Shown piece by piece: positions 25,743-45,230 of a DNA stretch of 64,000 bases (position 1 is its first letter; each line of letters starts with the position of its first letter). The position numbers and the translations under genes are program-made. The notes under the pieces were generated by a model, which saw only the letters and a list, made by a program, of their open reading frames with translations, did no database searches and was not told where the DNA came from. Origin of the DNA: an uncultured Syntrophaceae bacterium (GTDB lineage Bacteria > Desulfobacterota > Syntrophia > Syntrophales > UBA2185); NCBI GenBank assembly GCA_964564625.1, contig CAZMBE010000012.1, positions 6,011-70,010 on the forward strand. Direction: 5' to 3'.

Positions 25743-26372
25743 ATGGAAGTAAATGAATTAAAGGCCACTCTCCGTAATACTACCGGAAAAGGTGTTGCTC
25801 GAAGATTGAGAAAAAGCGGTTTGGTTCCCGCAGTCGTTTACGGTAATAATAAGGACACTCTCCTGTTAGCCGTAAACACTAATGAATTAACAAAACTCTT
25901 AAGGGGCAAAGAAGAAAATGTATTCATCAACTTGCGCGTTGAGAACGGGAAAATAATTGAAAAATTTACCCTTATCAAGGAACTGCAGTTAAATCCTGTC
26001 ACTGGAAAATTCCTTCATGTCGACTTTTGCGAAATCGATAAACAACAAGCCATTACCCTTGATATACCGATTCACTTCACAGGAGAGGCCGTGGGTGTCG
26101 AAATGGGCGGCGATCTTCATCATGTGAAGAGAGAAATAAAGGTATCATGCCTCTTTGCAGTGTTACCCGATTTTTTTGAGGTAGATGTGAGCCATCTTAA
26201 TATCGGTGATTCAATAAAGGTACAAGACTTGAAGCTGCCTGAGGGTATTACCATACTTGACTCTGAGGATACAATTTTAGCATCAGTTACCGCACCAAAA
26301 ACTACCGTACAAGCTGAACAGATAGAAGCAGTGGAACCGGTAGTGGAGGAGGAATCGAAGGAACAGAGCTGA
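25743..26372 (+). CDS. rplY: 50S ribosomal protein L25/general stress protein Ctc
   Basis: GKGVARRLRK..VPAVVYG, LHVDF, DVSHLNIGDSIKVQDL. Confidence 0.95.
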   Translation: MEVNELKATLRNTTGKGVARRLRKSGLVPAVVYGNNKDTLLLAVNTNELTKLLRGKEENVFINLRVENGKIIEKFTLIKELQLNPVTGKFLHVDFCEIDKQQAITLDIPIHFTGEAVGVEMGGDLHHVKREIKVSCLFAVLPDFFEVDVSHLNIGDSIKVQDLKLPEGITILDSEDTILASVTAPKTTVQAEQIEAVEPVVEEESKEQS

Positions 26373-26417
26373 TAAAATTTAAATGAACGATATCTAAGCA
26401 TCGCAAGGGGTTATTGT

Positions 26418-27023
26418 TTGAAACTTATAGTCGGGCTTGGAAATCCTGGTTTTAAGTACCAGGCCACAAGACACAATATTGGCTTCCTTGCCCTTGATAA
26501 GATTGCTGATACCTATGGCATCTCTATAATCATGAAAAGCTTTAATTCCTGCGTTGGAAGAGGCAAGATCGGTGATATTCCGGTTTTACTGGCCAAGCCA
26601 CAGACTTTCATGAATTTAAGTGGTGTTTCAGTAAGAAAGTGTTCAGATTATTATAAAATTGATCTTGCAGATTTGATTATAGTTCATGACGACATTGATC
26701 TTCCGTTTGGAATGATACGAATAAAAGCTGGCGGAGGCCATGCGGGACACAAAGGCTTAATCTCGATAATAGAATATTTAGGCAATGCGGAATTTATCAG
26801 GTTGAGAGTTGGCATAGGGAAACCGCCTGATAAGTCACTGGTAGAAAAGTATGTTCTTGAAACATTCACTGATGAAGAAGTGAAACTGCTTCCCTTCATT
26901 ACCAACACAGCAAGTAATGCATTAACGGCAATTATTGTGTCTGGTATTCAAGCTGCCATGAACCAGTACAACTGCAAAGGCACTAATCAATCCGCCAAAG
27001 GAGATGATACTCTGCCCTGCTGA
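26418..27023 (+). CDS. pth: Peptidyl-tRNA hydrolase
   Basis: LIVGLGNPG..TRHNIGF, AKPQTFMNLSG, VHDDIDL, GHAGHKGL, RLRVGIG; TTG start. Confidence 0.96.
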   Translation: MKLIVGLGNPGFKYQATRHNIGFLALDKIADTYGISIIMKSFNSCVGRGKIGDIPVLLAKPQTFMNLSGVSVRKCSDYYKIDLADLIIVHDDIDLPFGMIRIKAGGGHAGHKGLISIIEYLGNAEFIRLRVGIGKPPDKSLVEKYVLETFTDEEVKLLPFITNTASNALTAIIVSGIQAAMNQYNCKGTNQSAKGDDTLPC

Positions 27024-27077
27024 TCGTAACTTAATTTCATGTGCGGTTTATCATAACAATATCTTTTCGTACCATAA

Positions 27078-27112
27078 AAGAAGCGTCTCTTCATGAGATG
27101 CTTCTTTTTTTA
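27078..27112 (+). terminator. Intrinsic terminator after pth
   Basis: 12-bp stem AAGAAGCGTCTC/GAGATGCTTCTT, loop TTCAT, then T-run. Confidence 0.8.
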
Positions 27113-27115
27113 TGC

Positions 27116-27144
27116 TTGACAGTAGTAGTAAAAAAACTTAGCGT
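27116..27144 (+). promoter_or_regulatory. sigma70-type promoter candidate for ychF
   Basis: TTGACA-N17-TAGCGT 35 nt upstream of ychF ATG. Confidence 0.5.
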
Positions 27145-27179
27145 TCACATGGAAGCAATTATAATGATGGGATATTACT

Positions 27180-28274
27180 ATGGGATTTCGATGCGGCATT
27201 ATAGGACTTCCGAACGTTGGGAAATCCACTATTTTCAATGCCCTCACGGCCGCAGGCGCTGAGGTTGCCAACTATCCCTTCTGCACTATTGATCCAAACA
27301 TAGGAATTGTACCTGTACCTGACGCAAGACTTGAAACAATCGCGAAAATCATAAAACCTCCCAAGATTACTTACACCACTATAGAATTTCTCGATATAGC
27401 CGGTCTTGTGAGGGGTGCAAGCCGGGGGGAAGGATTGGGAAACAAGTTTCTCGGACACATCAGGGAAGTCGATGCCATTGTGCACATTGTTCGATGCTTT
27501 GACCATCCCTCTGTTTCCCACATATACGGAGCTGTCGATCCCGCCCGCGACATAGAGATAATAAATACCGAATTAATCATTGCTGATTTAGAAACAGTTG
27601 AAAAGAGGATTGCAAAGATCGAAAGGCTTGCAAAAACGGGAGACAGGCTCGCCCGTAAAGAGTTCGACATATGTCTCCATATCAGGGATACTCTGGGAAA
27701 GGGTACCCCTGCACGTAAAAGTATTTTTTCATTGGAAGAGCAACATACCCTTAGCGACCTCCACCTGCTGACAGTTAAAAAAATTCTGTACGTTGCGAAT
27801 GTCAGTGAGGCTGTCCTTAAGGGAAATAATGACTATATTAAGAAAGTAGAATTAATAGCAGAGCAGGAAGGCTTGAAGGTAATCGTCATATGCGGTGATC
27901 TGGAAGCTGAAATAGCAGAACTTCCAAAGGAAGAACAGAGAGAATTTATTCGTGATCTCGGTCTTCAGGAATCTGGTCTCCAGAAATTAATAAAAGAGGG
28001 CTATGAGCTTTTAGGTTTGATTACTTTTTATACTACCGTCGGAACAGAACTTCGGGCCTGGACGATTCCCGACGGAACAAAAGCTCCCGCAGCAGCGGGA
28101 AAAATACATGGAGATATGGAACGAGGTTTTATCAAAGCTGAAATTATTCATTATAACGAATTTATTAAAATTGGCAGTTTGTCAAAAGCGAAAGAACATG
28201 GACTCATTCACTTAGAAGGGAAAGACTATATCCTGCAGGACGGTGATATTGCCTTTTTTCGGTTCAATGTATAA
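27180..28274 (+). CDS. ychF: Redox-regulated ATPase YchF
   Basis: GIIGLPNVGKST, ANYPFCTIDPN, DIAGLVRGASRGEGLGNKFL, GKIHGDMERGFIKAE. Confidence 0.97.
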   Translation: MGFRCGIIGLPNVGKSTIFNALTAAGAEVANYPFCTIDPNIGIVPVPDARLETIAKIIKPPKITYTTIEFLDIAGLVRGASRGEGLGNKFLGHIREVDAIVHIVRCFDHPSVSHIYGAVDPARDIEIINTELIIADLETVEKRIAKIERLAKTGDRLARKEFDICLHIRDTLGKGTPARKSIFSLEEQHTLSDLHLLTVKKILYVANVSEAVLKGNNDYIKKVELIAEQEGLKVIVICGDLEAEIAELPKEEQREFIRDLGLQESGLQKLIKEGYELLGLITFYTTVGTELRAWTIPDGTKAPAAAGKIHGDMERGFIKAEIIHYNEFIKIGSLSKAKEHGLIHLEGKDYILQDGDIAFFRFNV

Positions 28275-28304
28275 ATATTTGTCGGAAGTTACCGTCTTTT
28301 GAAC

Positions 28305-28448
28305 AAAATAAAAGTGGATGGTTAAAGGAGGGAAAACAAACCATCCACCTCTATGTAAACTGAAAGGGACCATACATGCTCGTCCTCTTCAGATTATCTG
28401 TTCAGGGGGCCGGTGGATGGCAAAGGAGGGAATGGAAACCACCCACCG
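28305..28448 (-). ncRNA. Three-hairpin cassette with two anti-SD (CCCUCCUUU) loops ending in a U-tract; candidate sRNA/3'UTR
   Basis: Hairpins at 28314-28348 (perfect 10 bp), 28361-28391 and 28411-28448 (9/10 bp); on the minus strand hairpins 1 and 3 have CCCTCCTTT in the loop; TTTTATTTT follows the last hairpin. Confidence 0.55.
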
Positions 28449-28484
28449 ATTTAACATCAGAAAAACTTTCCAACGTCAGCAGGA

Positions 28485-28742
28485 CTAATCCTCGTGGATA
28501 AAAAAGTCAGGAAGAAAAAAAGTCTTACTTTGGTCTTCTGTAGCTTCTTCTTGTTCCTTTTTCCTTGGTTTTAGTACGGATAATTTTTTTTCTATATTTT
28601 CATTACTCGGTGTAATGAAAAAATCATATTCAAAACCGTATTCATCATTACCGAAATCCGCATCTGGCAAGGAATCTTCCAGACCTTTTGTTTTTTTTAT
28701 TTTATCTTTGCGGTGTTTCCCCTCCTTCTTCATGGAACACAT
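28485..28742 (-). CDS. Orphan small charged protein (85 aa), downstream of sigma54 promoter
   Basis: Open frame; Lys-rich ends, acidic/aromatic core (EYGFEYDFF, TFFLPDFF); no clear RBS upstream of the ATG. Confidence 0.4.
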   Translation of the reverse strand: MCSMKKEGKHRKDKIKKTKGLEDSLPDADFGNDEYGFEYDFFITPSNENIEKKLSVLKPRKKEQEEATEDQSKTFFLPDFFIHED

Positions 28743-28869
28743 TGCCGTTATTGAATATCAATTTTAAGAGACCTCTGAGATCTACCTTTCATATATGCTC
28801 TATCGGCTATTATTCCTAAAGGTCTCTTACGTTCTCGAGAGGTCTCTTATTAAAACTGTTGTTTCTATA

Positions 28870-28887
28870 TTGCAATATTACTGCCAC
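28870..28887 (-). promoter_or_regulatory. sigma54 (-24/-12) promoter
   Basis: Minus strand GTGGCAGTAATATTGCAA = TGGCA-G-N5-TTGCA with exact GG-N10-GC spacing. Confidence 0.8.
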
Positions 28888-29050
28888 TTTTATTTAGAAT
28901 TTTATATTTTGCGTACACACATACCCCAATTCTCCTATATGTACATCAATAACAACTAGTTATATTTTTATTTTAAAAACTATAATATTGTGGTGGGGCT
29001 ATAAGCATAATGTAAAGCATAGGGTTTCACAGGCTTTTTCATACAATGAT

Positions 29051-29157
29051 TTGTGCGACATTCGCACAATACATACGGGATGACATTGGGGGATGCTAAG
29101 CTATTGAGGGCTTTAAGTTGTGTGCAATATCCGCACTTATCGTGCTTAATACGCACA
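29051..29157. promoter_or_regulatory. Three candidate upstream activator sites for the adjacent bEBP
   Basis: TGTGCG-ACATT-CGCACA (29052-29068), TGTGCA-ATATC-CGCACT (29121-29137), CGTGCT-TAATA-CGCACA (29141-29157). Confidence 0.65.
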
Positions 29158-29173
29158 CATTTAGTATAATTAA

Positions 29174-31306
29174 TCAGTTGCTATGCTTACTGATCTTCTT
29201 CTGTTCACGGATAAATTTATATCGCGATATGCTCAATTGTTTCGCTGCCACAGTTTTATTGCCGCCACTCATTTCAAGAGCATTTTCGAGTATTTTCTCT
29301 TTGATATCGTTCATGATTTTTTCCGTTACGGATGTGTAATGTATTTCACCGGAAAATAATGGAGGGAGAAATTTTTCAATTTCAACGTTAAGATACTTCT
29401 GCGTGGGAATCACTTTTATTTCCGCAGGAAGATCATCAGGTGTAATCGTTGTACCGATTCGCTGTAATATCATTACCCGTTCAATAATATTTTTTAACTC
29501 ACGAACATTGCCTGGCCAAGAATAGTTTTTCAGAATATTTTCGGCTTCTTTACTGAAGCCTCTCACTTTTTTTCCGAATTTCTTATTAAACTCTTCTATA
29601 TAATGTCGTGATAGAAGAAGGATGTCGTCAGATCTATCCCGAAGTGGCGGTATCACAATAGGAACAACCCTTATCCTGTAAAAAAGATCTTCCCGAAAGG
29701 AACCTTCACTTACCATTTTAGCTAGATCCATATTTGTAGAGAAAATGAATCTCACATCTATAGGTATATTTTCTGTACCTCCTAGTCGTCTGACATAACC
29801 ATTTTCCAGCATTCTGAGGAATTTTACTTGCAACTGGATACTCATATCACCCACTTCATCTAACAGCAATGTTCCACCATTAGCATATTCCAGAAGCCCT
29901 ATTTTTCTTTTTCTTGCGTCCGTAAATGCTCCTGCTTCATAGCCGAAAAGTTCACTTTCTAAAAGCGTTCCGGGAATAGCAGCACAATTTACATCGACAA
30001 AAGGTTTTGAATGCCGGTTGCTCTGTCTATGAATTGCGCGCGCAATCAATTCTTTACCAGTACCGCTTTCACCCTGAATTAATATATTTGTATTATGTGA
30101 GGCTACTTCTTCTACCACATGGAATATGCCAATCATCTTTTTCGACTTGCCGATAATATTATGAAATCCTAATAAAATATCTTCCCGCTCCTTGAGTTTT
30201 TCAACTTCCGTTTTGAGAGATTCCGCTTCGAGGGATAGCATGGAATGCATAATCGCATTATCATATGATGTAACTGCATTTTTAACTAATATGTCGAGAA
30301 TATTTATTTGATCCTGTGAGTAGCCGTCTGACAGCTTGGCGAGATATAATGCACCTTTAAACTTGTTTTTTATATGAAGGGGGAAGGCTATCTCTGAGGA
30401 ACATCCTTCATAAATGGGATAGATTGCAGCGCTGTCATCAGAATTACGACGCACCACAATACTCCCTGTATCCATTGTTCGTTTAATGATACTTTGCCCT
30501 ATTTTTTTATCATACGCTTTTCTATCTTCGATGAACACCTTTCCACCATCGGTAACGAGACAGCGATCCTTTTCTATGTCAAGAAAATATACAAGTACCT
30601 TATCAGCGTTTGCAATCCTCAGGGCACTATTACTCAGAACATAGAGTATGTGATTATCAAGGACGCGGCTTATGTTTATCTCAGAAACAGCCTCCTGAAG
30701 AATCATGAGCTGACGTATCTTTTCCGCATTCGTTTCAAAAAGCCTCGTATTGTGAATAACGATGCTCATCTGACTCGCAAATGTCAGGAAGATGTTAATC
30801 TCTTCGGTGAAATATTTTATCTCCTCTTTGCACCACGCAGCAATAGTGCCAATCACTTCATCACCGATTTTCAGGGGCGCGCACATAATAGATCCCCTAT
30901 TATAGACCTTTGTGAGCATACGATCGGTTTCGGTGATCCTGGGATCAGTATTCATATTTTCAATGGCTATGGGTAGACCTGATTTAGCCACTTTTGTAGA
31001 CAGACAATCATGTTCTCTAATATTAAGCGCAACGGAAAAGGCTATTTTTGTCTCTTCTGGATTATAATTTTTCACAACTTTTGTTTCCAGATATTGTTTC
31101 GTTTCATCAACCAGACGAATGATCCCCATGTCGAAACCCATTGTATCGACGACTTCGTCTAATATTTTGGCCATGAGTTCATCCACATTGGACGGTGCCG
31201 TGAGGAAGGTGCTTATACGAAATATACTTTTCAGTAGTTTTTCTTTATCAAGCAAAGGAGCTGCTGATACTTTTAAGTAATCATTCTCATTATCTATTGT
31301 TACCAT
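29174..31306 (-). CDS. sigma54-dependent Fis-family enhancer-binding protein with N-terminal GAF domains
   Basis: GAF-like SIMCAPLKIGDEVIGTI and AFPLHIKNKFKGALYL; GESGTGKE, ESELFGYEAGAFTDA, LLLDEVGDM, WPGNVRELKN, C-terminal HTH GNKTVAAKQLSISR. Confidence 0.94.
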   Translation of the reverse strand: MVTIDNENDYLKVSAAPLLDKEKLLKSIFRISTFLTAPSNVDELMAKILDEVVDTMGFDMGIIRLVDETKQYLETKVVKNYNPEETKIAFSVALNIREHDCLSTKVAKSGLPIAIENMNTDPRITETDRMLTKVYNRGSIMCAPLKIGDEVIGTIAAWCKEEIKYFTEEINIFLTFASQMSIVIHNTRLFETNAEKIRQLMILQEAVSEINISRVLDNHILYVLSNSALRIANADKVLVYFLDIEKDRCLVTDGGKVFIEDRKAYDKKIGQSIIKRTMDTGSIVVRRNSDDSAAIYPIYEGCSSEIAFPLHIKNKFKGALYLAKLSDGYSQDQINILDILVKNAVTSYDNAIMHSMLSLEAESLKTEVEKLKEREDILLGFHNIIGKSKKMIGIFHVVEEVASHNTNILIQGESGTGKELIARAIHRQSNRHSKPFVDVNCAAIPGTLLESELFGYEAGAFTDARKRKIGLLEYANGGTLLLDEVGDMSIQLQVKFLRMLENGYVRRLGGTENIPIDVRFIFSTNMDLAKMVSEGSFREDLFYRIRVVPIVIPPLRDRSDDILLLSRHYIEEFNKKFGKKVRGFSKEAENILKNYSWPGNVRELKNIIERVMILQRIGTTITPDDLPAEIKVIPTQKYLNVEIEKFLPPLFSGEIHYTSVTEKIMNDIKEKILENALEMSGGNKTVAAKQLSISRYKFIREQKKISKHSN

Positions 31307-31405: not shown

Positions 31406-33439
31406 TCAACTCTTATCATACGCATGAAACTGCATGGAAAATATGGCTCTACCCTGAGTTGCAGAACGAAGGTCGGTTGAATATCCAAACATTTCCTTCA
31501 GAGGAACCCTGGCCTTTATTTCGCTTATTGTTCCTTTCGTTGTGATGGCTTGAATTTCTCCCCGTCGTGCATTTATATCTCCAATGACTTCACCCATAAA
31601 TTCACCTGGCGTGATAATATCTACCATCATGATCGGTTCAAGCAATACAGGATCAGCCTGCATACATCCATTTTTTACCGCAGATGAAGCAGCTATTTTA
31701 TACCCAAGTGTTGTAGATTCCCCGTCCCTAAACGATCCTCCTGTTATTGTCACCTTTATATCCACAATGGGGTAGCCGCTTATAACCCCGCTCAGAGATG
31801 CTTCTTCCACGCCCTCTTCTATCGCGGTATGGTATTCTGCCGGAATTACTGTTTCATCAATTTTTCTCACAAGCTCATTGCCCTCACCCCTGCTCTTAGG
31901 TTCAAGCAATAATCTCACATGGCCGTAATGTTTTCTTTCGCCAAGTTCCTTGTCAAAAAGTCCTTCGATCTCTATTCTTTTTTGAATAGTTTCCCGATAT
32001 ACAACCCTGGGTTTACCTACATTGACGCGCGCATTAAACTCTCGCTGTAATCTGTCAATGAGGATTTCCAGATGAAGTTCCCCCATACCTGAAACAACAG
32101 TTTGGGAAGTCTCATCATTGTACTTTACTTTGATTGTAGGATCCTCTTCCATAAGTTTTGCCAATGCCACTGTCAGCTTTTCCTGATCTGCCGGAGTTTT
32201 GGCCTCGATAGCCTGACTTATCACCGGTTCATAGAACTCTATTGGTTCAAGAAGGATCGGACAAGATTCATCACATATTGTATTTCCAGTGGTTGTATCT
32301 TTGAGGCCCATAATGGCGACAATCCCGCCTGCCCCGCACCGCTCAATCCTCTCCCGTTTATTCGCATGCATTTTTAACAGACGGGCGATTTTCTCTTTCT
32401 TCCCGATGCTGGCATTATATACATCATCGCCTGCCTTGATCTGTCCCGAATACACTCTCAGATACGTCAACTTCCTTCCTTCATCTTGCATGATTTTGAA
32501 TGCGAGAGCGGCTAGGGGTTCATCGTCGCTGCTAAGTCGTATTTCTTCTTCTCTGGTCAAGGGATTGATACCGTTAACAGGGGGGATGTCTTCCGGTGAT
32601 GGTAAAAAATGGACAATCGCATCGAGTAATATTTGAATGCCCTTGTTTCTCAAAGCAGTACCGCACATGACTGGCACGGCTTTCAGAGAGATTGTTGCGT
32701 CCCTGATCGCCTGGATTATTTCTTTCTCCTGAATCTCGGTCCCCTCCAAATACTTCTCTGCAATATAATCATCCATCTCGGCGAGCGATTCTATAAGCTT
32801 CTCCCGGTACTCCCTGACCTCTTGAGCGATATCTGCCGGAATATCCGTAACTGTGAAAGACACGCCAAGTTTGCTGTCATCCCAGGTCACTGCTTTCTGT
32901 TTGATTAAGTCTATTATTCCTTTAAAATGTTCCTCCTGTCCAAAGGGTATTTGAATAGGTAGAGGCCTTGAATTAAACCTCTCACTCATTGTTTTTATGG
33001 TTCCAAAATAATCGGCGCCTATCCTGTCCATCTTATTGATGAAAGCAATCTTGGGAACCCCATATTTATCTGCCTGATGCCAGACCGTTTCTGATTGGGG
33101 TTCTACACCGCCGACGGCACAAAACACCACCAAGGCCCCATCAAGAACTCTCAGAGAGCGCTCAACTTCCATGGTAAAATCAACATGGCCAGGTGTGTCA
33201 ATGATCTGGATCTCATGATTAGCCCACGTACAGGCTGTCACGGCAGATGTTATTGTAATCCCTCTCTCCTGTTCCTGGGGCATCCAATCCATCGTGGCTT
33301 CACCATTATGAACCTCACCCATCTTATACAATCTCCCCGCATAAAACAGGATCCTCTCCGTCACAGTAGTTTTACCGGCATCAATATGGGCAATGATCCC
33401 TATATTTCTTGTTCTGGAAAGTTTTTTTCTTGAAGCCAT
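31406..33439 (-). CDS. fusA: Elongation factor G paralog (outside str operon)
   Basis: [61 protein letters not shown]. Confidence 0.93.
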
Positions 33440-41987: not shown

Positions 41988-42050
41988 TCAAATTCTACAG
42001 AATATTAAGAAATATGATAAAAAATATTTCTCATTGAGAAACATCTTCAT
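41988..42050 (-). CDS. Candidate 20-aa small ORF with strong RBS after the RND gene
   Basis: AAGGAGGG-N9-ATG; MKMFLNEKYFLSYFLIFCRI*. Confidence 0.3.
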   Translation of the reverse strand: MKMFLNEKYFLSYFLIFCRI

Positions 42051-42080
42051 TATTTCAGTCCCTCCTTAGTTTAACTGGCA

Positions 42081-45000
42081 TTATTGAACGGGAGTTACAG
42101 GTGATTTTTTGTCCTTTCGCCAGAAGAACTTTATCTTGTTCTTCCCCTTAAATATTTCCAGCAAATCATCAGAGAGGTCATAGGCCGCCGGAACAACCAC
42201 GAGCGTCAGAAAGAGCGAGGTAAGAAGACCGCCGATGACGGCGATACCCATTGGCGAGCGTGTTTCAGCACCTTCACCCAAGCCCAGGGCTACGGGGAGC
42301 ATACCAAAGACCATGGCAAAGGTGGTCATCAGGATCGGCCTCAATCTGACTGGTCCGGCCTGAAGAATGGCTTCTCTCCTCGACATACCTCTCTCCCTCA
42401 ACGTATTGGTATAGTCCACAAGAAGGATCGCATTCTTCTTTACCAAACCCATCAGCAGGATAAGCCCGATAAAGCTGAAGATGCTGATTGTTTTTCCCAT
42501 AAGCAACAGGGCTCCGAAGGCACCGATAAATGACAGGGGCATGGAGAGAAGCACGATACATGGATGGAGAAAGCTCTCAAACTGTGCGGCGAGAATCATA
42601 TAGGCCATGATGACCCCGAGTATCAGGGCAAACATGAGATATTGGAAGGATTCTCCCATTGTTTCCGCCATTCCTTTATACTTTGGTATGTAATCCATAG
42701 GCAGCACTTTGTCTGAGATAGCATTGAGCTCATTTATGGCTGTTCCAAGAGGCTTTCCTTCAAGACTGGCAAAGACGGTAATAGCGCGCTGCCGGTCCAC
42801 CCGGTTGATGACGCTGGGGCCTCCCCCTTCCTGAATCCGGACAACATTGGCAAGTTGAATTAGCCTTCCATCCTTTGCCCGGACATAAATCTTCCCAAGA
42901 TCATCGGGATTGGTGCGGTCCGCAGCACTAAGCCTTACACGAACATCATAACGCCTCCCCCTCTGCTCATCTTTGTACTTGGTTACATCAACCTCTCCGC
43001 TGACCAGGAGATTCACTGCCTCCGCGATGGAAGCCACGCTGACGCCAAGATCGGCCGCCTTGTCGCGGTCGATAAACACTTTCAGTTCCGGTTTCCCTGC
43101 TTCAAGCGATGTATCAACATCAACAATACCGGGGAGTTTGGCGAATTCACCGACGATCTGCTTTGTATAGGACTGGAGCGCGGAAAGATCAAGACCCCGG
43201 ATGCTGTACTGAATCGGCACATTTCTTATTCCCCCACCGACAAGGGAAATATCCTCTGCCGTTCCTTTCAGACCAGGGATTTCAAAAAACTTCCGCCTCA
43301 ATTCTTTTTTGATCTGCTCCTGGCTCTTCGTTCGTTCCGACTTCTTCTGCAAGCTGACAAGGAGAATCCCTTTGTTTATCTGCACGGTGCGTCCATAACC
43401 CTGGATATATAATGCAGACACCACTTCCGGTATGTTCTTGATTATATTCTCCGCGTTTCTGAACATGCTGTCAGCCTGGTCCACGGAGTAATCGACGGGG
43501 GCTTCAAGGCGCACTATAAACCGGCTCTGATCCTCCGGAGGAATGAACTCTTTGCCTATGAACTTTGTTATGAAAATGCTGACGGCAAAAATCACAACGG
43601 CAAGGACGAGAACTATTCCACGGTGGCGGAGTGACACTTCAAGAAGTTTCCGATAGGCTATCTCCGTTTTCTTATAGCCTCTTTCCCACCAATCCCGGAC
43701 ATGAAATACAGGAGCAAACCTCAATGGATTTCCCACATTATTACTCGTGTCCTTTTTCCGTGTTGTCAGGAAAATAGACGCCATCATAGGTGTTAAAGTA
43801 AACGAGACGATGAGTGAAACGAGGATGGCAAACACCACCGTAAGGGCAAACTGGAGGAAGAATCTTCCTATAATCCCTTTCATGAAAGCAACAGGAAGAA
43901 AAATCGCGACTATTGCAAATGTCGTGGCCATGACCGCGAGCCCTATCTCGGAAGTAGCAAAAGAGGCTGCTTCTCTGGGTGCCATGCCTTCCTCGATATG
44001 GCGATGAATGTTTTCGATGACGATAATGGCATCGTCAATGAGAATCCCTATTGAAAGCGAAAGGGCGAGCATGGTCATGTTGTTGAAGGTAAACCCGAAT
44101 ACCCGGAGCAGCGCGAAGGTTGCTATTACCGAGACAGGGAGGGCGACCGCGCTGATGAGTGTCGTCCTTACGTTTTGGAGAAAAATAAAAACTGCGAGGA
44201 CGGCCAGAAAACCGCCGAAGATCAGGTGGTGTTGTACTTCATTAATGGATCTATTGATGAAGGTAGACTGGTCAAAGGAAATGCCGAGTTCCATGCCGGG
44301 CGGGAGAGTTTTTTTGATATTTTCCAACTCCGCCTTCACACGGTTCACGACCTCTACCGTGTTCGTTCCCGATTGCTTCTGTATCCCCAGGCCAACAGCA
44401 GTCATGCCGTTGAACCGGACAACGGTTCTTTTTTCCTCCATCCCATCTTCGGCCTTCCCGATATCCCGAAGCCTTACCGGTGCGCCATTGTAATAGGTTA
44501 CGACAAGGTCGTTAAAATCATGTACTTTAGAAAATTCCCCCTTAATCTTAACCTCATACTCCTTGGAAATAGTCTCGATTCGGCCTCCCGGAAGTTCGAG
44601 ATTTTCCCGCTGCAGGGCCTGAATGATATCACTGGGCGCAACCCCGTACGCCCTCATTCGGTCCGCATCGATCCAGACCCTTACCTGGCGTAGCCTCAAT
44701 CCATACATACGTACAGCACCGACTTCATTAATCCGTTGCAGCTTTTCTTTCAGCACTTCGTCGGCATACATGGAGAGTTCCCGTATAGGTCTTTTGCCCA
44801 CGAGATTGAGCCAGATCACGGGATTGGCATCGGGATCAACCTTCTGGATGATAGGCTCGTCAATATCCGTCGGAAGTTTCGATCGGATCATGGATATTTT
44901 TTCCCGCACATCCTGAACGGCAAGATCAATATCCCGCTCCAAAACAAATTCGACTGTGACCACGGATGCGCCTTCCACACTCATCGAGGTGATCGTCTTC

Positions 45001-45230
45001 ACACCATTGATGGTATTGACCGTTTCCTCAATTTTGTCGGTTACGTCGATGTCCATGATCTCCGGGCTTGCGCCTTTGAGGGTCGTGGTGATATTCACAA
45101 TAGGGAAATCAACCTTGGGAAAGAGGTCCACGCCGATCTCCGGATAACTCACCGCCCCTAACACGACCAGAGCCAAAATAAACATGGTCGCAAAAACGGG
45201 ACGCTTAATCGAGGTATTAGCGAGCCACAT
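42081..45230 (-). CDS. RND efflux permease (AcrB/AcrD/AcrF family)
   Basis: IKRPVFATM, VDLFPKVDFP, GILIDDAIIVIENI, GLVKKNAILLVD, RLRPILMTT, RSPMGIAVIGG. Confidence 0.96.
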   Translation of the reverse strand: MWLANTSIKRPVFATMFILALVVLGAVSYPEIGVDLFPKVDFPIVNITTTLKGASPEIMDIDVTDKIEETVNTINGVKTITSMSVEGASVVTVEFVLERDIDLAVQDVREKISMIRSKLPTDIDEPIIQKVDPDANPVIWLNLVGKRPIRELSMYADEVLKEKLQRINEVGAVRMYGLRLRQVRVWIDADRMRAYGVAPSDIIQALQRENLELPGGRIETISKEYEVKIKGEFSKVHDFNDLVVTYYNGAPVRLRDIGKAEDGMEEKRTVVRFNGMTAVGLGIQKQSGTNTVEVVNRVKAELENIKKTLPPGMELGISFDQSTFINRSINEVQHHLIFGGFLAVLAVFIFLQNVRTTLISAVALPVSVIATFALLRVFGFTFNNMTMLALSLSIGILIDDAIIVIENIHRHIEEGMAPREAASFATSEIGLAVMATTFAIVAIFLPVAFMKGIIGRFFLQFALTVVFAILVSLIVSFTLTPMMASIFLTTRKKDTSNNVGNPLRFAPVFHVRDWWERGYKKTEIAYRKLLEVSLRHRGIVLVLAVVIFAVSIFITKFIGKEFIPPEDQSRFIVRLEAPVDYSVDQADSMFRNAENIIKNIPEVVSALYIQGYGRTVQINKGILLVSLQKKSERTKSQEQIKKELRRKFFEIPGLKGTAEDISLVGGGIRNVPIQYSIRGLDLSALQSYTKQIVGEFAKLPGIVDVDTSLEAGKPELKVFIDRDKAADLGVSVASIAEAVNLLVSGEVDVTKYKDEQRGRRYDVRVRLSAADRTNPDDLGKIYVRAKDGRLIQLANVVRIQEGGGPSVINRVDRQRAITVFASLEGKPLGTAINELNAISDKVLPMDYIPKYKGMAETMGESFQYLMFALILGVIMAYMILAAQFESFLHPCIVLLSMPLSFIGAFGALLLMGKTISIFSFIGLILLMGLVKKNAILLVDYTNTLRERGMSRREAILQAGPVRLRPILMTTFAMVFGMLPVALGLGEGAETRSPMGIAVIGGLLTSLFLTLVVVPAAYDLSDDLLEIFKGKNKIKFFWRKDKKSPVTPVQ

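Follow-up and report, generated by a model that had tools for sequence, protein, structure and literature searches.

In the former Deltaproteobacteria, an enhancer-binding activator with a dedicated sigma-54 small RNA (sRNA) just downstream of its gene is an established arrangement. In Myxococcus xanthus, the gene of PxrR (Nla19) is followed by a 262-nucleotide (nt) intergenic region and then by the 108-nt Pxr sRNA, which has three stem-loops and an essential first loop (PMC5568312, PMC5684412). In Desulfovibrio vulgaris, the sole mapped target of DVU0679 is Dv_sRNA2 just downstream of its own gene, where three CGTGCG-N4-CGCACG sites are followed by a sigma-54 promoter, and three further pairs of an activator and a noncoding RNA involve DVU0653, DVU1419 and DVU2359 (PMC3333781, PMC4641369). 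Here we describe a locus of comparable layout in a 64-kb stretch of DNA from an uncultured Syntrophaceae bacterium (contig CAZMBE010000012.1, positions 6,011 to 70,010; hereafter the window, with a GC content of 0.446 over its whole length). On its minus strand, the gene of a GAF-domain activator is followed by three putative enhancer sites, a sigma-54 promoter element and a region that would be transcribed as a leader hairpin, a small gene and a 3' domain of three stem-loops (SL1 to SL3).

An initial annotation of the window had proposed a GAF-domain enhancer-binding protein at the head of this module. Pfam matches to GAF (two stretches of GAF_2), Sigma54_activat (E 4.5e-68), AAA_lid_14 and HTH_8 bear this out. 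The protein scores under all NCBIfam equivalog cut-offs, its top match being NifA-like, and as no such cut-off was reached the attribution to a named regulator was dropped. Directly past the activator stop codon lie the three palindromes of the initial annotation, the last two 20 bp apart as it had reported. They are the only GTGC-N7-GCAC occurrences in the 64 kb (29053-29067, 29122-29136 and 29142-29156, all within 105 bp), when 0.43 would be expected by chance and three were reached in none of 100 shuffles; the 17-nt pattern given in the annotation, searched at two mismatches or fewer, also matched nothing else in the window (0, 2 and 2 mismatches). The palindromes span 175-270 bp upstream of the promoter, the centre of site C being ~175 bp upstream of the -24 GG. 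The intervening spacer is AT-rich, as had been noted. No exact match to the consensus of integration host factor (IHF) was found in the window, only a box with one mismatch in this spacer; the AT-rich block TGTAAATTATTGAT, which is conserved in orthologues, is an IHF-like box on the other strand. The proposed GG-N10-GC promoter corresponds to TGGCAGTAATATTGCA, the sole exact TGGCA-N6-TTGCW of the window, with its GG and GC dinucleotides exactly ten bases apart. Judging from the usual promoter spacing, transcription would start near 28860. This arrangement suggests that the region is transcribed in an RpoN-dependent manner and that the activator binds the three sites.

The module was compared with ~140 related loci from Syntrophales genomes and metagenomes. 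A protein search with the activator, using one genome per species, returned 18 close orthologues, all in Syntrophales or Syntrophaceae metagenome-assembled genomes (MAGs), and a metagenome scan with the hairpin alone returned at least 120 loci; the counts from the hairpin scan given below are among the loci listed. A 2.2-kb contig labelled Eubacteriaceae (L017, JAAXUP010000222.1) carries the full module with an activator 93% identical to that of the window, and its label is probably a MAG binning error.

The same sites and promoter were looked for beside orthologous activators, as the initial annotation had proposed, and were found to be conserved together. In 14 Syntrophales loci found via the activator, the elements have the order and distances observed in the window: three palindromes, an AT-rich block, TGGCA-N6-TTGCA, a leader of ~87 nt, an open reading frame (ORF) and a highly conserved hairpin. 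A TGGC-N7-TTGC motif was present on the same strand and at most 600 nt upstream of the RNA in 77 of the 101 loci with at least 600 nt upstream, compared to 0 in the reverse-strand and downstream controls. Enhancer-like sites accompanied 81 of 89 distinct promoter regions (58 with three sites, 23 with two) and clustered 140-190 and 200-270 nt upstream of the promoter, and the exact IHF consensus occurred in 25 of these 89 regions compared to 3 of 89 control windows. A full-length orthologous activator on the same strand, ending less than 1.5 kb upstream, was present in 25 of the 40 loci with at least 2.8 kb upstream; these activators share 50-93% identity, GAF region included. In other loci (for example L025, L048 and L061), the sites, promoter and RNA sit elsewhere in the genome with no activator alongside. 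At the level of sequence, these comparisons demonstrate the parts of the module, their conservation and their linkage.

The most constant of these parts lies at the 3' end. The hairpin with a U-tract that the initial annotation had placed at ~28305 is SL3, a 16-bp hairpin at 28349..28314 followed by UUUUAUUUU, which has the features of an intrinsic terminator facing ychF; a simple terminator scan missed it because its loop exceeds 8 nt, and it was found by folding. The CCCUCCUUU motif that SL3 shares with SL1 is invariant across 103 distinct hairpins. It forms the 3' half of the loop and consists of the same eight bases as the anti-Shine-Dalgarno tail of 16S rRNA. In related loci, a C-rich tail follows 96 of 211 hairpins and a U-tract 62 of 211. 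Among 45 distinct versions of the hairpin, paired cells reach 99% and 7 of 11 base pairs show changes in both partners, values that no shuffle reaches, with the percentage paired being inflated by the retrieval of this set by pattern and its filtering by stem. Compensatory changes are exemplified by the stems GGUGGAUGG/CCAUCCACC, GGUGGGUGG/CCACCCACC, GGCGGAUGG/CCAUCCGCC and GGCGGAAG/CUUCCGCC, and those in loci found via the activator alone are independent of the stem filter. The fold z-score is -5.5 for the 3' domain and -5.2 for the whole 566-nt stretch, better than all shuffles. The initial annotation had drawn a structured transcript of ~550 nt; the folding is upheld, but instead of an undifferentiated RNA three separable modules were found. 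A UAAAU sequence just 5' of SL1 is A/U-rich and conserved in stand-alone forms and in those located in a 3' untranslated region (3'-UTR). When Rfam 15 was searched, neither the leader nor the hairpins overlapped a hit, with a threshold of E <= 10 for the window and of E <= 1 for four related loci. A dispersed repeat of the repetitive extragenic palindrome type was ruled out, the hairpin having just two copies in the 64 kb and being confined, in related contigs, to this locus.

Relatives differ in what separates the promoter from the hairpin. Architectures were classed by regular expressions in 77 loci with a strict promoter: 15 are stand-alone RNAs with less than 150 nt between promoter and hairpin, 18 carry leader and ORF, 3 the leader without ORF, and 39 the ORF without leader according to this simple pattern, several of the latter holding a diverged leader according to a covariance model. 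Stand-alone forms, such as L084 and L111, consist of a promoter, 30-130 nt, the hairpin and a terminator, with no ORF. In L015, whose activator is 61% identical, the sites and promoter are followed by ~45 nt, SL1, the C-run and a terminator, without leader and without ORF. Other loci carry the ORF only (L036, and L103 with the ORF broken by an in-frame TAG), leader and hairpins only (L044), or a leader with a decayed ORF that has lost its ATG and kept AAAGGAGGAGGG (L099). L014 has kept the sites, promoter and leader and lost the ORF and hairpins, and L007 has lost the whole module save half of the first site. Since in more distant relatives the activator, sites and promoter of this type would yield the hairpin RNA alone, the RNA would be the core output and the leader and gene would be add-ons. 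The unit travelling with the activator thus appears to consist of the sites, the sigma-54 promoter and an SL1-type hairpin, the leader, the small gene and a universal stress protein (Usp) gene being accessory, and the 3' domain appears to be the ancestral and constant part, reduced in distant relatives to an RNA of ~100-170 nt alone.

The ORF-less relatives L015, L084 and L111 on the one hand and the conserved ORF of 82 amino acids (aa) on the other agree with the earlier proposal that what the activator controls from the adjacent sigma-54 promoter is no enzyme but a regulatory RNA, a small protein or both. This needs one qualification: in the two most distant lineages (L016, 6338-7080; L067, 2125-2750), activator-adjacent sites and a sigma-54 promoter precede a Usp gene (~175 aa), and in L067 a small ...FFLPDFPEN ORF and two SL1-type hairpins come after it. 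These two Usp genes were the only other places in the compared DNA where sites and promoter were paired. A high-GC class (L046, 5900-6210; L065, 7290-7600) has an extra hairpin with the C-rich loop CCCAAGACCCUGACAGACCCC after the sigma-54 promoter, then SL1 and, downstream of it, a conserved hydrophobic ORF of 48 codons that has AAGGAAG as its own ribosome-binding site; the 6 kb upstream contain no activator gene.

Table 1. Elements of the module, with coordinates in the window
Feature	Coordinates	Strand	Sequence and remarks
Enhancer-binding activator gene, 710 aa	29174..31306	minus	GAF-GAF sensor, AAA+ sigma-54 interaction domain, Fis-type helix-turn-helix (HTH)
Enhancer site A	29141..29157		TGTGCGTATTAAGCACG read on minus; aligned and conserved in orthologous loci
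Enhancer site B	29121..29137		AGTGCGGATATTGCACA; 20 bp centre-to-centre from site A; conserved in orthologous loci
Enhancer site C	29052..29068		perfect palindrome TGTGCGAATGTCGCACA; conserved in orthologous loci
AT-rich spacer	28887..29051		GC 0.28 (window, 0.446)
IHF-like box in spacer	28950-28962		TAACAACTAGTTA on plus; one mismatch to WATCAANNNNTTR
Sigma-54 -24/-12 element, TGGCAG-N5-TTGCA	28871..28886	minus	TGGCAGTAATATTGCA; same place in orthologous loci
Leader hairpin, 87 nt	28763..28849	minus	outer stem GAGACCUC/GAGGUCUC, inner stem GAGA/UCUC
Small gene, 82 codons	28485..28733	minus	MKKEGKHRK...EYGFEYDFFI...DQSKTFFLPDFFIHED; stop TAG 28487..28485
GGAGG at +9..+13 of small gene	28721..28725	minus	complementary to SL1 and SL3 loops
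SL1	28411..28448	minus	stem CGGUGGGUGG/CCAUCCACCG, 18-nt loop ending in CCCUCCUUU (28430..28422); no U-tract after
C-rich linker GCCCCCU after SL1	28404..28410	minus	ACCCCC after SL1 in nearly all loci
SL2	28360..28392	minus	CUGAAGAGGAC/GUCCCUUUCAG; same arms in L025, L026, L036, L044, L103
SL3 and U-tract	28302..28350	minus	second SL1-type hairpin GGUGGAUGG/CCAUCCAC, CCCUCCUUU at 28332..28324, then UUUUAUUUU

The initial annotation had seen no recognisable gene downstream of the promoter. This did not hold, as the region contains the conserved 82-codon ORF. The start at 28742 in the list of ORFs is three codons upstream of the conserved ATG and is not the conserved start; in most loci an in-frame stop is present just 5' of this ATG. 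In orthologous loci, the indels of the small gene are all multiples of three, the third codon position is the most variable (25787/22448/33553 pairwise differences by codon position), and synonymous variation occurs at invariant Phe, Gly, Asp, Gln, Ser and Leu columns. Two motifs of the protein, GE(F/Y)GxEY(D/E)FFI and DQSKTFFLPDFF, are conserved. Combined, these patterns clearly point to selection at the protein level. A profile search returned 158 homologous clusters; those listed measure 54-109 aa, nearly all of them 74-82 aa. The clusters come from Syntrophales, Deltaproteobacteria or unlabelled metagenomes and, where named by their source, are called hypothetical save for two evident mislabels. 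No Pfam or NCBIfam match to the small protein was obtained, and from an AlphaFold model based on a 52-sequence alignment (pLDDT 61, pTM 0.13) it is predicted to be disordered.

Variants of the small gene were also recorded. In two unrelated lineages, in-frame TAG codons interrupt otherwise conserved ORFs (at codon 14 in L005, and just before VFFLPD in L103 and L114), and in L002 ATT replaces ATG and 1 nt is deleted near the 3' end; these changes could be MAG errors, recent decay or read-through. The Pro codon of FFLPD (window ~28520-28506) is CCT in 42 of 44 sequences, in contrast to CCC, CCG and CCA at another Pro column; the RNA level may impose an additional constraint on the pyrimidine run UUUUUUCUUCCUGA.

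The beginning of the small gene carries a further constraint. ATG-N5-GGAGG is found in 44 of 53 distinct ORF starts, and we describe it as a property of every intact small gene. Around the GGAGG, residues 2, 3 and 5 vary (as in MKKEE, MEKEE, MFKED, MKGEG and MSQEA), whereas GAG is the only codon used at position 4 and every codon 3 has G as its last base; the remainder of the ORF prefers GAA for Glu and AAA for Lys. No Shine-Dalgarno sequence was found upstream of the ATG. Use of the GGAGG by an alternative start codon 5-12 nt past it was rejected, since no lineage has such a codon. In the minimum-energy fold of the full-length window transcript, the AUG and the GGAGG pair with the SL1 loop; duplexes of the start region have energies of -17.7 kcal/mol with SL1 and -24.2 kcal/mol with SL3, and the GGAGG is the best intramolecular partner of the loops. 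Two AAGGAGGG sites occur in the sense orientation in the 64 kb, one of them in the small gene itself, and the sole candidate pairing target is the family's own +9 GGAGG. The other site (42049-42067, minus) is the ribosome-binding site of a 20-codon ORF that closely follows the gene of an RND efflux pump (45230..42081).

The leader is nearly invariant among orthologues and far more conserved than its flanks, with an invariant ACCUUU/AAAGG stem beside a purine-rich internal loop and a fold z-score of -4.8. A covariance model of it, built here, detects exactly one leader in each of 53 loci, without exception on the RNA strand, and a single match in the window at 28849..28763. In these sequences paired cells amount to 95%, both partners have changed in 6 of the 18 pairs, and the covariation score was reached in 0 of 500 shuffles. 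Pairing is 99.5% in the outer stem, where four pairs covary, and 83% in the second stem, where two do; the ACCUU/AAGG stem shows no covariation, four of its five pairs being invariant and one varying on one side only. An upstream ORF within the leader (AUGAAAGG...) was ruled out, its AUG being AAG, ACG, UUG or UAG in several lineages. With respect to a riboswitch, the helices are supported but no expression platform could be drawn. The leader occurs with the ORF, without it and apart from it.

In the window, the module is surrounded by translation genes, with L25/Ctc, peptidyl-tRNA hydrolase (Pth) and YchF encoded on the plus strand (25743-28274) and EF-G on the minus strand (31406-33439). The EF-G gene (33439..31406) is just upstream of the activator, and ychF (27180..28274, plus) is convergent with the module. 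Most related loci retain ychF in this convergent position, and the gene upstream of the activator differs between loci; L026 and L028 have a cyclic nucleotide (cNMP)-binding protein and a K+ channel in that position instead. The Usp association and the translation-gene neighbourhood at most hint at a stress or slow-growth response.

On balance, we favour the view, as probable though far from certain, that the locus is a sigma-54 module dedicated to its activator with a dual-function RNA as output, the loops of which pair with GGAGG ribosome-binding sites. A ligand would trigger the GAF sensor, and the activator would bind the three GTGC-N7-GCAC sites past its own stop codon. With the DNA bent across the AT-rich spacer, it would then open the sigma-54 promoter. 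The resulting transcript of ~555 nt (~28860 to 28304) would contain the 87-nt leader, the 82-codon gene and the three-stem-loop 3' domain, and the protein encoded by the gene would be acidic and disordered, with a pair of conserved aromatic motifs. Base-pairing of the SL1 and SL3 loops and of the C-run with GGAGG-type ribosome-binding sites would block translation initiation, either in trans on other mRNAs, possibly after endonucleolytic cleavage at the UAAAU 5' of SL1, or in cis or in trans on the +9..+13 GGAGG of the small gene itself. In this scheme we infer transcription and its RpoN dependence, the signal, how the RNA is processed, which targets it pairs with and what the leader and the protein do. 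In the window, the RNA domain forms the 3' end of an mRNA.

Several observations weigh against this view. Firstly, an 8-nt anti-Shine-Dalgarno core would match most ribosome-binding sites, and the specificity for targets is thus unaccounted for. Secondly, duplex energies between start regions and loops did not differ between own and foreign pairs in 47 loci (p = 0.49), and given this absence of a co-evolution signal what ties the loops to the +9 GGAGG is the invariance of the two motifs. Thirdly, an adjacent activator is missing in 15 of the 40 loci listed, and the sigma-54 contact loop of the activator reads GAFTDA rather than the canonical GAFTGA, as in all 65 orthologues; GAFTGA or GSFTGA is present in unrelated activators of the same data set, and GAFTDA is counted among the loop variants expected to stay active (PMC4641369). 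Finally, to the inflated pairing percentage of the hairpin must be added that the promoter match alone is not significant in the window (0.36 expected, at least one in 33 of 100 shuffles); its weight comes from its adjoining the enhancer sites and from its conservation across loci.

Control could instead be purely in cis, the 3' loops folding onto the AUG and GGAGG of the small gene to gate its translation, with no targets in trans. The invariance of the +9..+13 GGAGG at the nucleotide level, its pairing with the SL1 loop in the minimum-energy fold together with the two duplex energies, and the lack of a Shine-Dalgarno sequence 5' of the ATG are all consistent with this. However, the loops are unchanged in versions without ORF, there is no co-evolution beyond the invariant cores, and in L046 and L065 the hairpin is located upstream of a different small ORF, which makes an exclusively cis mechanism unlikely.

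Distinctly unlikely, in our estimate, is a global action in which the hairpin RNA would be a stress-induced mimic of the 16S rRNA 3' tail, throttling translation in slow-growing syntrophs. Such a mimic would compete with the 30S subunit for strong Shine-Dalgarno sites or act as a decoy for a factor recognising the anti-Shine-Dalgarno tail; the small protein and, in some lineages, Usp would be co-induced with it in one dormancy programme, and, through the GGAGG after its AUG, the small gene would be the only message that the mimic itself tunes.

That the transcript is an ordinary mRNA, with the protein as its sole functional output and the 3' hairpins as terminators or stability elements, would suit an ORF that is clearly selected at the protein level and widespread, and SL3 would be its terminator. 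Against this, the hairpin is kept without the ORF in L015, L084, L111 and L044 and with a decayed ORF in L099, the invariance of CCCUCCUUU over 103 distinct hairpins is needless for a terminator, and SL1 has no U-tract after it; we regard this explanation as very improbable. We are equally doubtful about a protein decoy, in which the hairpins, by imitating a pyrimidine tract or the 3' tail of 16S rRNA, would titrate a factor that recognises it, such as an S1-like protein, a nuclease or a factor for initiation or ribosome maturation. In its favour, stem (GGUGGAUGG/CCAUCCACC) and loop show unusual conservation and the unit occurs in duplicate, which is reminiscent of protein-sponge RNAs, the 3' half of the loop equals the anti-Shine-Dalgarno tail, and the neighbours encode L25/Ctc, Pth, YchF and EF-G. 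Yet no protein linked to the locus offers itself as a partner, the stems covary and their sequence is therefore not strictly fixed, and C-rich loops pairing with ribosome-binding sites are the commoner precedent. Lastly, a leader acting as a riboswitch or protein-binding switch, with the key control exerted after initiation and not via the activator, is hardly to be expected: the leader is far more conserved than its flanks, has covarying outer stems and an invariant internal loop beside the P2 stem and matches no Rfam family, but no alternative terminator/anti-terminator or masking of the start site could be drawn, the leader is missing from many loci with ORF and hairpins (L036, L103), is present without the ORF in L044 and alone in L014, has no link to metabolic genes, and does not hold an upstream ORF, the internal AUG not being conserved.

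Syntrophales, key methanogen partners in peat, fens and digesters, are hard to culture, and essentially no RNA regulators have been described in them. The parts of the circuit proposed here are well defined (a sensor, three DNA sites, a promoter and an RNA seed) and could be rebuilt in a model host. Within one family, a stand-alone sRNA is seen with and without a small gene and a leader, gained or lost, which bears on the origin of dual-function and 3'-UTR-derived sRNAs. Loops resembling the anti-Shine-Dalgarno tail, combined with a fixed GGAGG past a start codon that lacks a Shine-Dalgarno sequence, constitute a testable oddity of translation control.

PxrR/Pxr and DVU0679/Dv_sRNA2 are the closest analogues of the locus. 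The likeness to PxrR/Pxr lies in the succession of an activator, enhancer sites with a sigma-54 promoter and an sRNA in the same orientation, a plan found here in L084, L111 and L015. PxrR is a receiver-domain response regulator whereas the window activator has GAF-GAF sensors, and the RNA of the window is embedded behind a leader and a small gene. Over positions 13-33, the part of Pxr given by a primer (PMC5568312), a GGUGG arm and a C-run are present and CCUCCUUU is not. The half-sites of DVU0679 nearly match the GTGCG/CGCAC of the window, with a spacing of GTGC-N6-GCAC there and GTGC-N7-GCAC here; DVU0679 is a response regulator with an HTH sequence unrelated to that of the window activator, and the likeness of Dv_sRNA2 to the RNA described here concerns its layout.

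Outside this group, a regulatory RNA is the main output of an enhancer-binding protein in LuxO-Qrr, GlrR-GlmY, CbrB-CrcZ and NtrC-NrsZ, and NrsZ contains repeated similar stem-loops. Qrr, GlmY, CrcZ and NrsZ belong to other RNA families and organisms, none of them matches the window RNA in Rfam, and we know of none among them that carries a conserved small gene. Pairing of C-rich loops or linkers with GGAGG-type Shine-Dalgarno sequences, with several motifs per RNA, is a property of RsaE/RoxS, of the hairpins of Staphylococcus aureus RNAIII and of CyaR, to which the window RNA is similar in its proposed action. These RNAs share no sequence or structural family with that of the window and answer to other regulators, and they use a short CCC or UCCC motif in contrast to the eight 16S-tail bases found here. 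A base-pairing domain is combined with a small conserved ORF, each being separately losable in evolution, in SgrS/SgrT, RNAIII/delta-haemolysin and SR1/SR1P. Among these, SgrS and RNAIII are similar in layout to the window RNA. All of them are unrelated to it in sequence, and in the window the ORF is 5' of the RNA domain; in the present family all combinations occur (the RNA alone, ORF and RNA, and leader, ORF and RNA). In conclusion, the locus represents a new RNA and protein family within a known type of circuit, and what is new is the breadth of its conservation, the series from a bare sRNA to a leader-gene-sRNA unit, the loops that resemble the 16S tail and the fixed GGAGG after the AUG.

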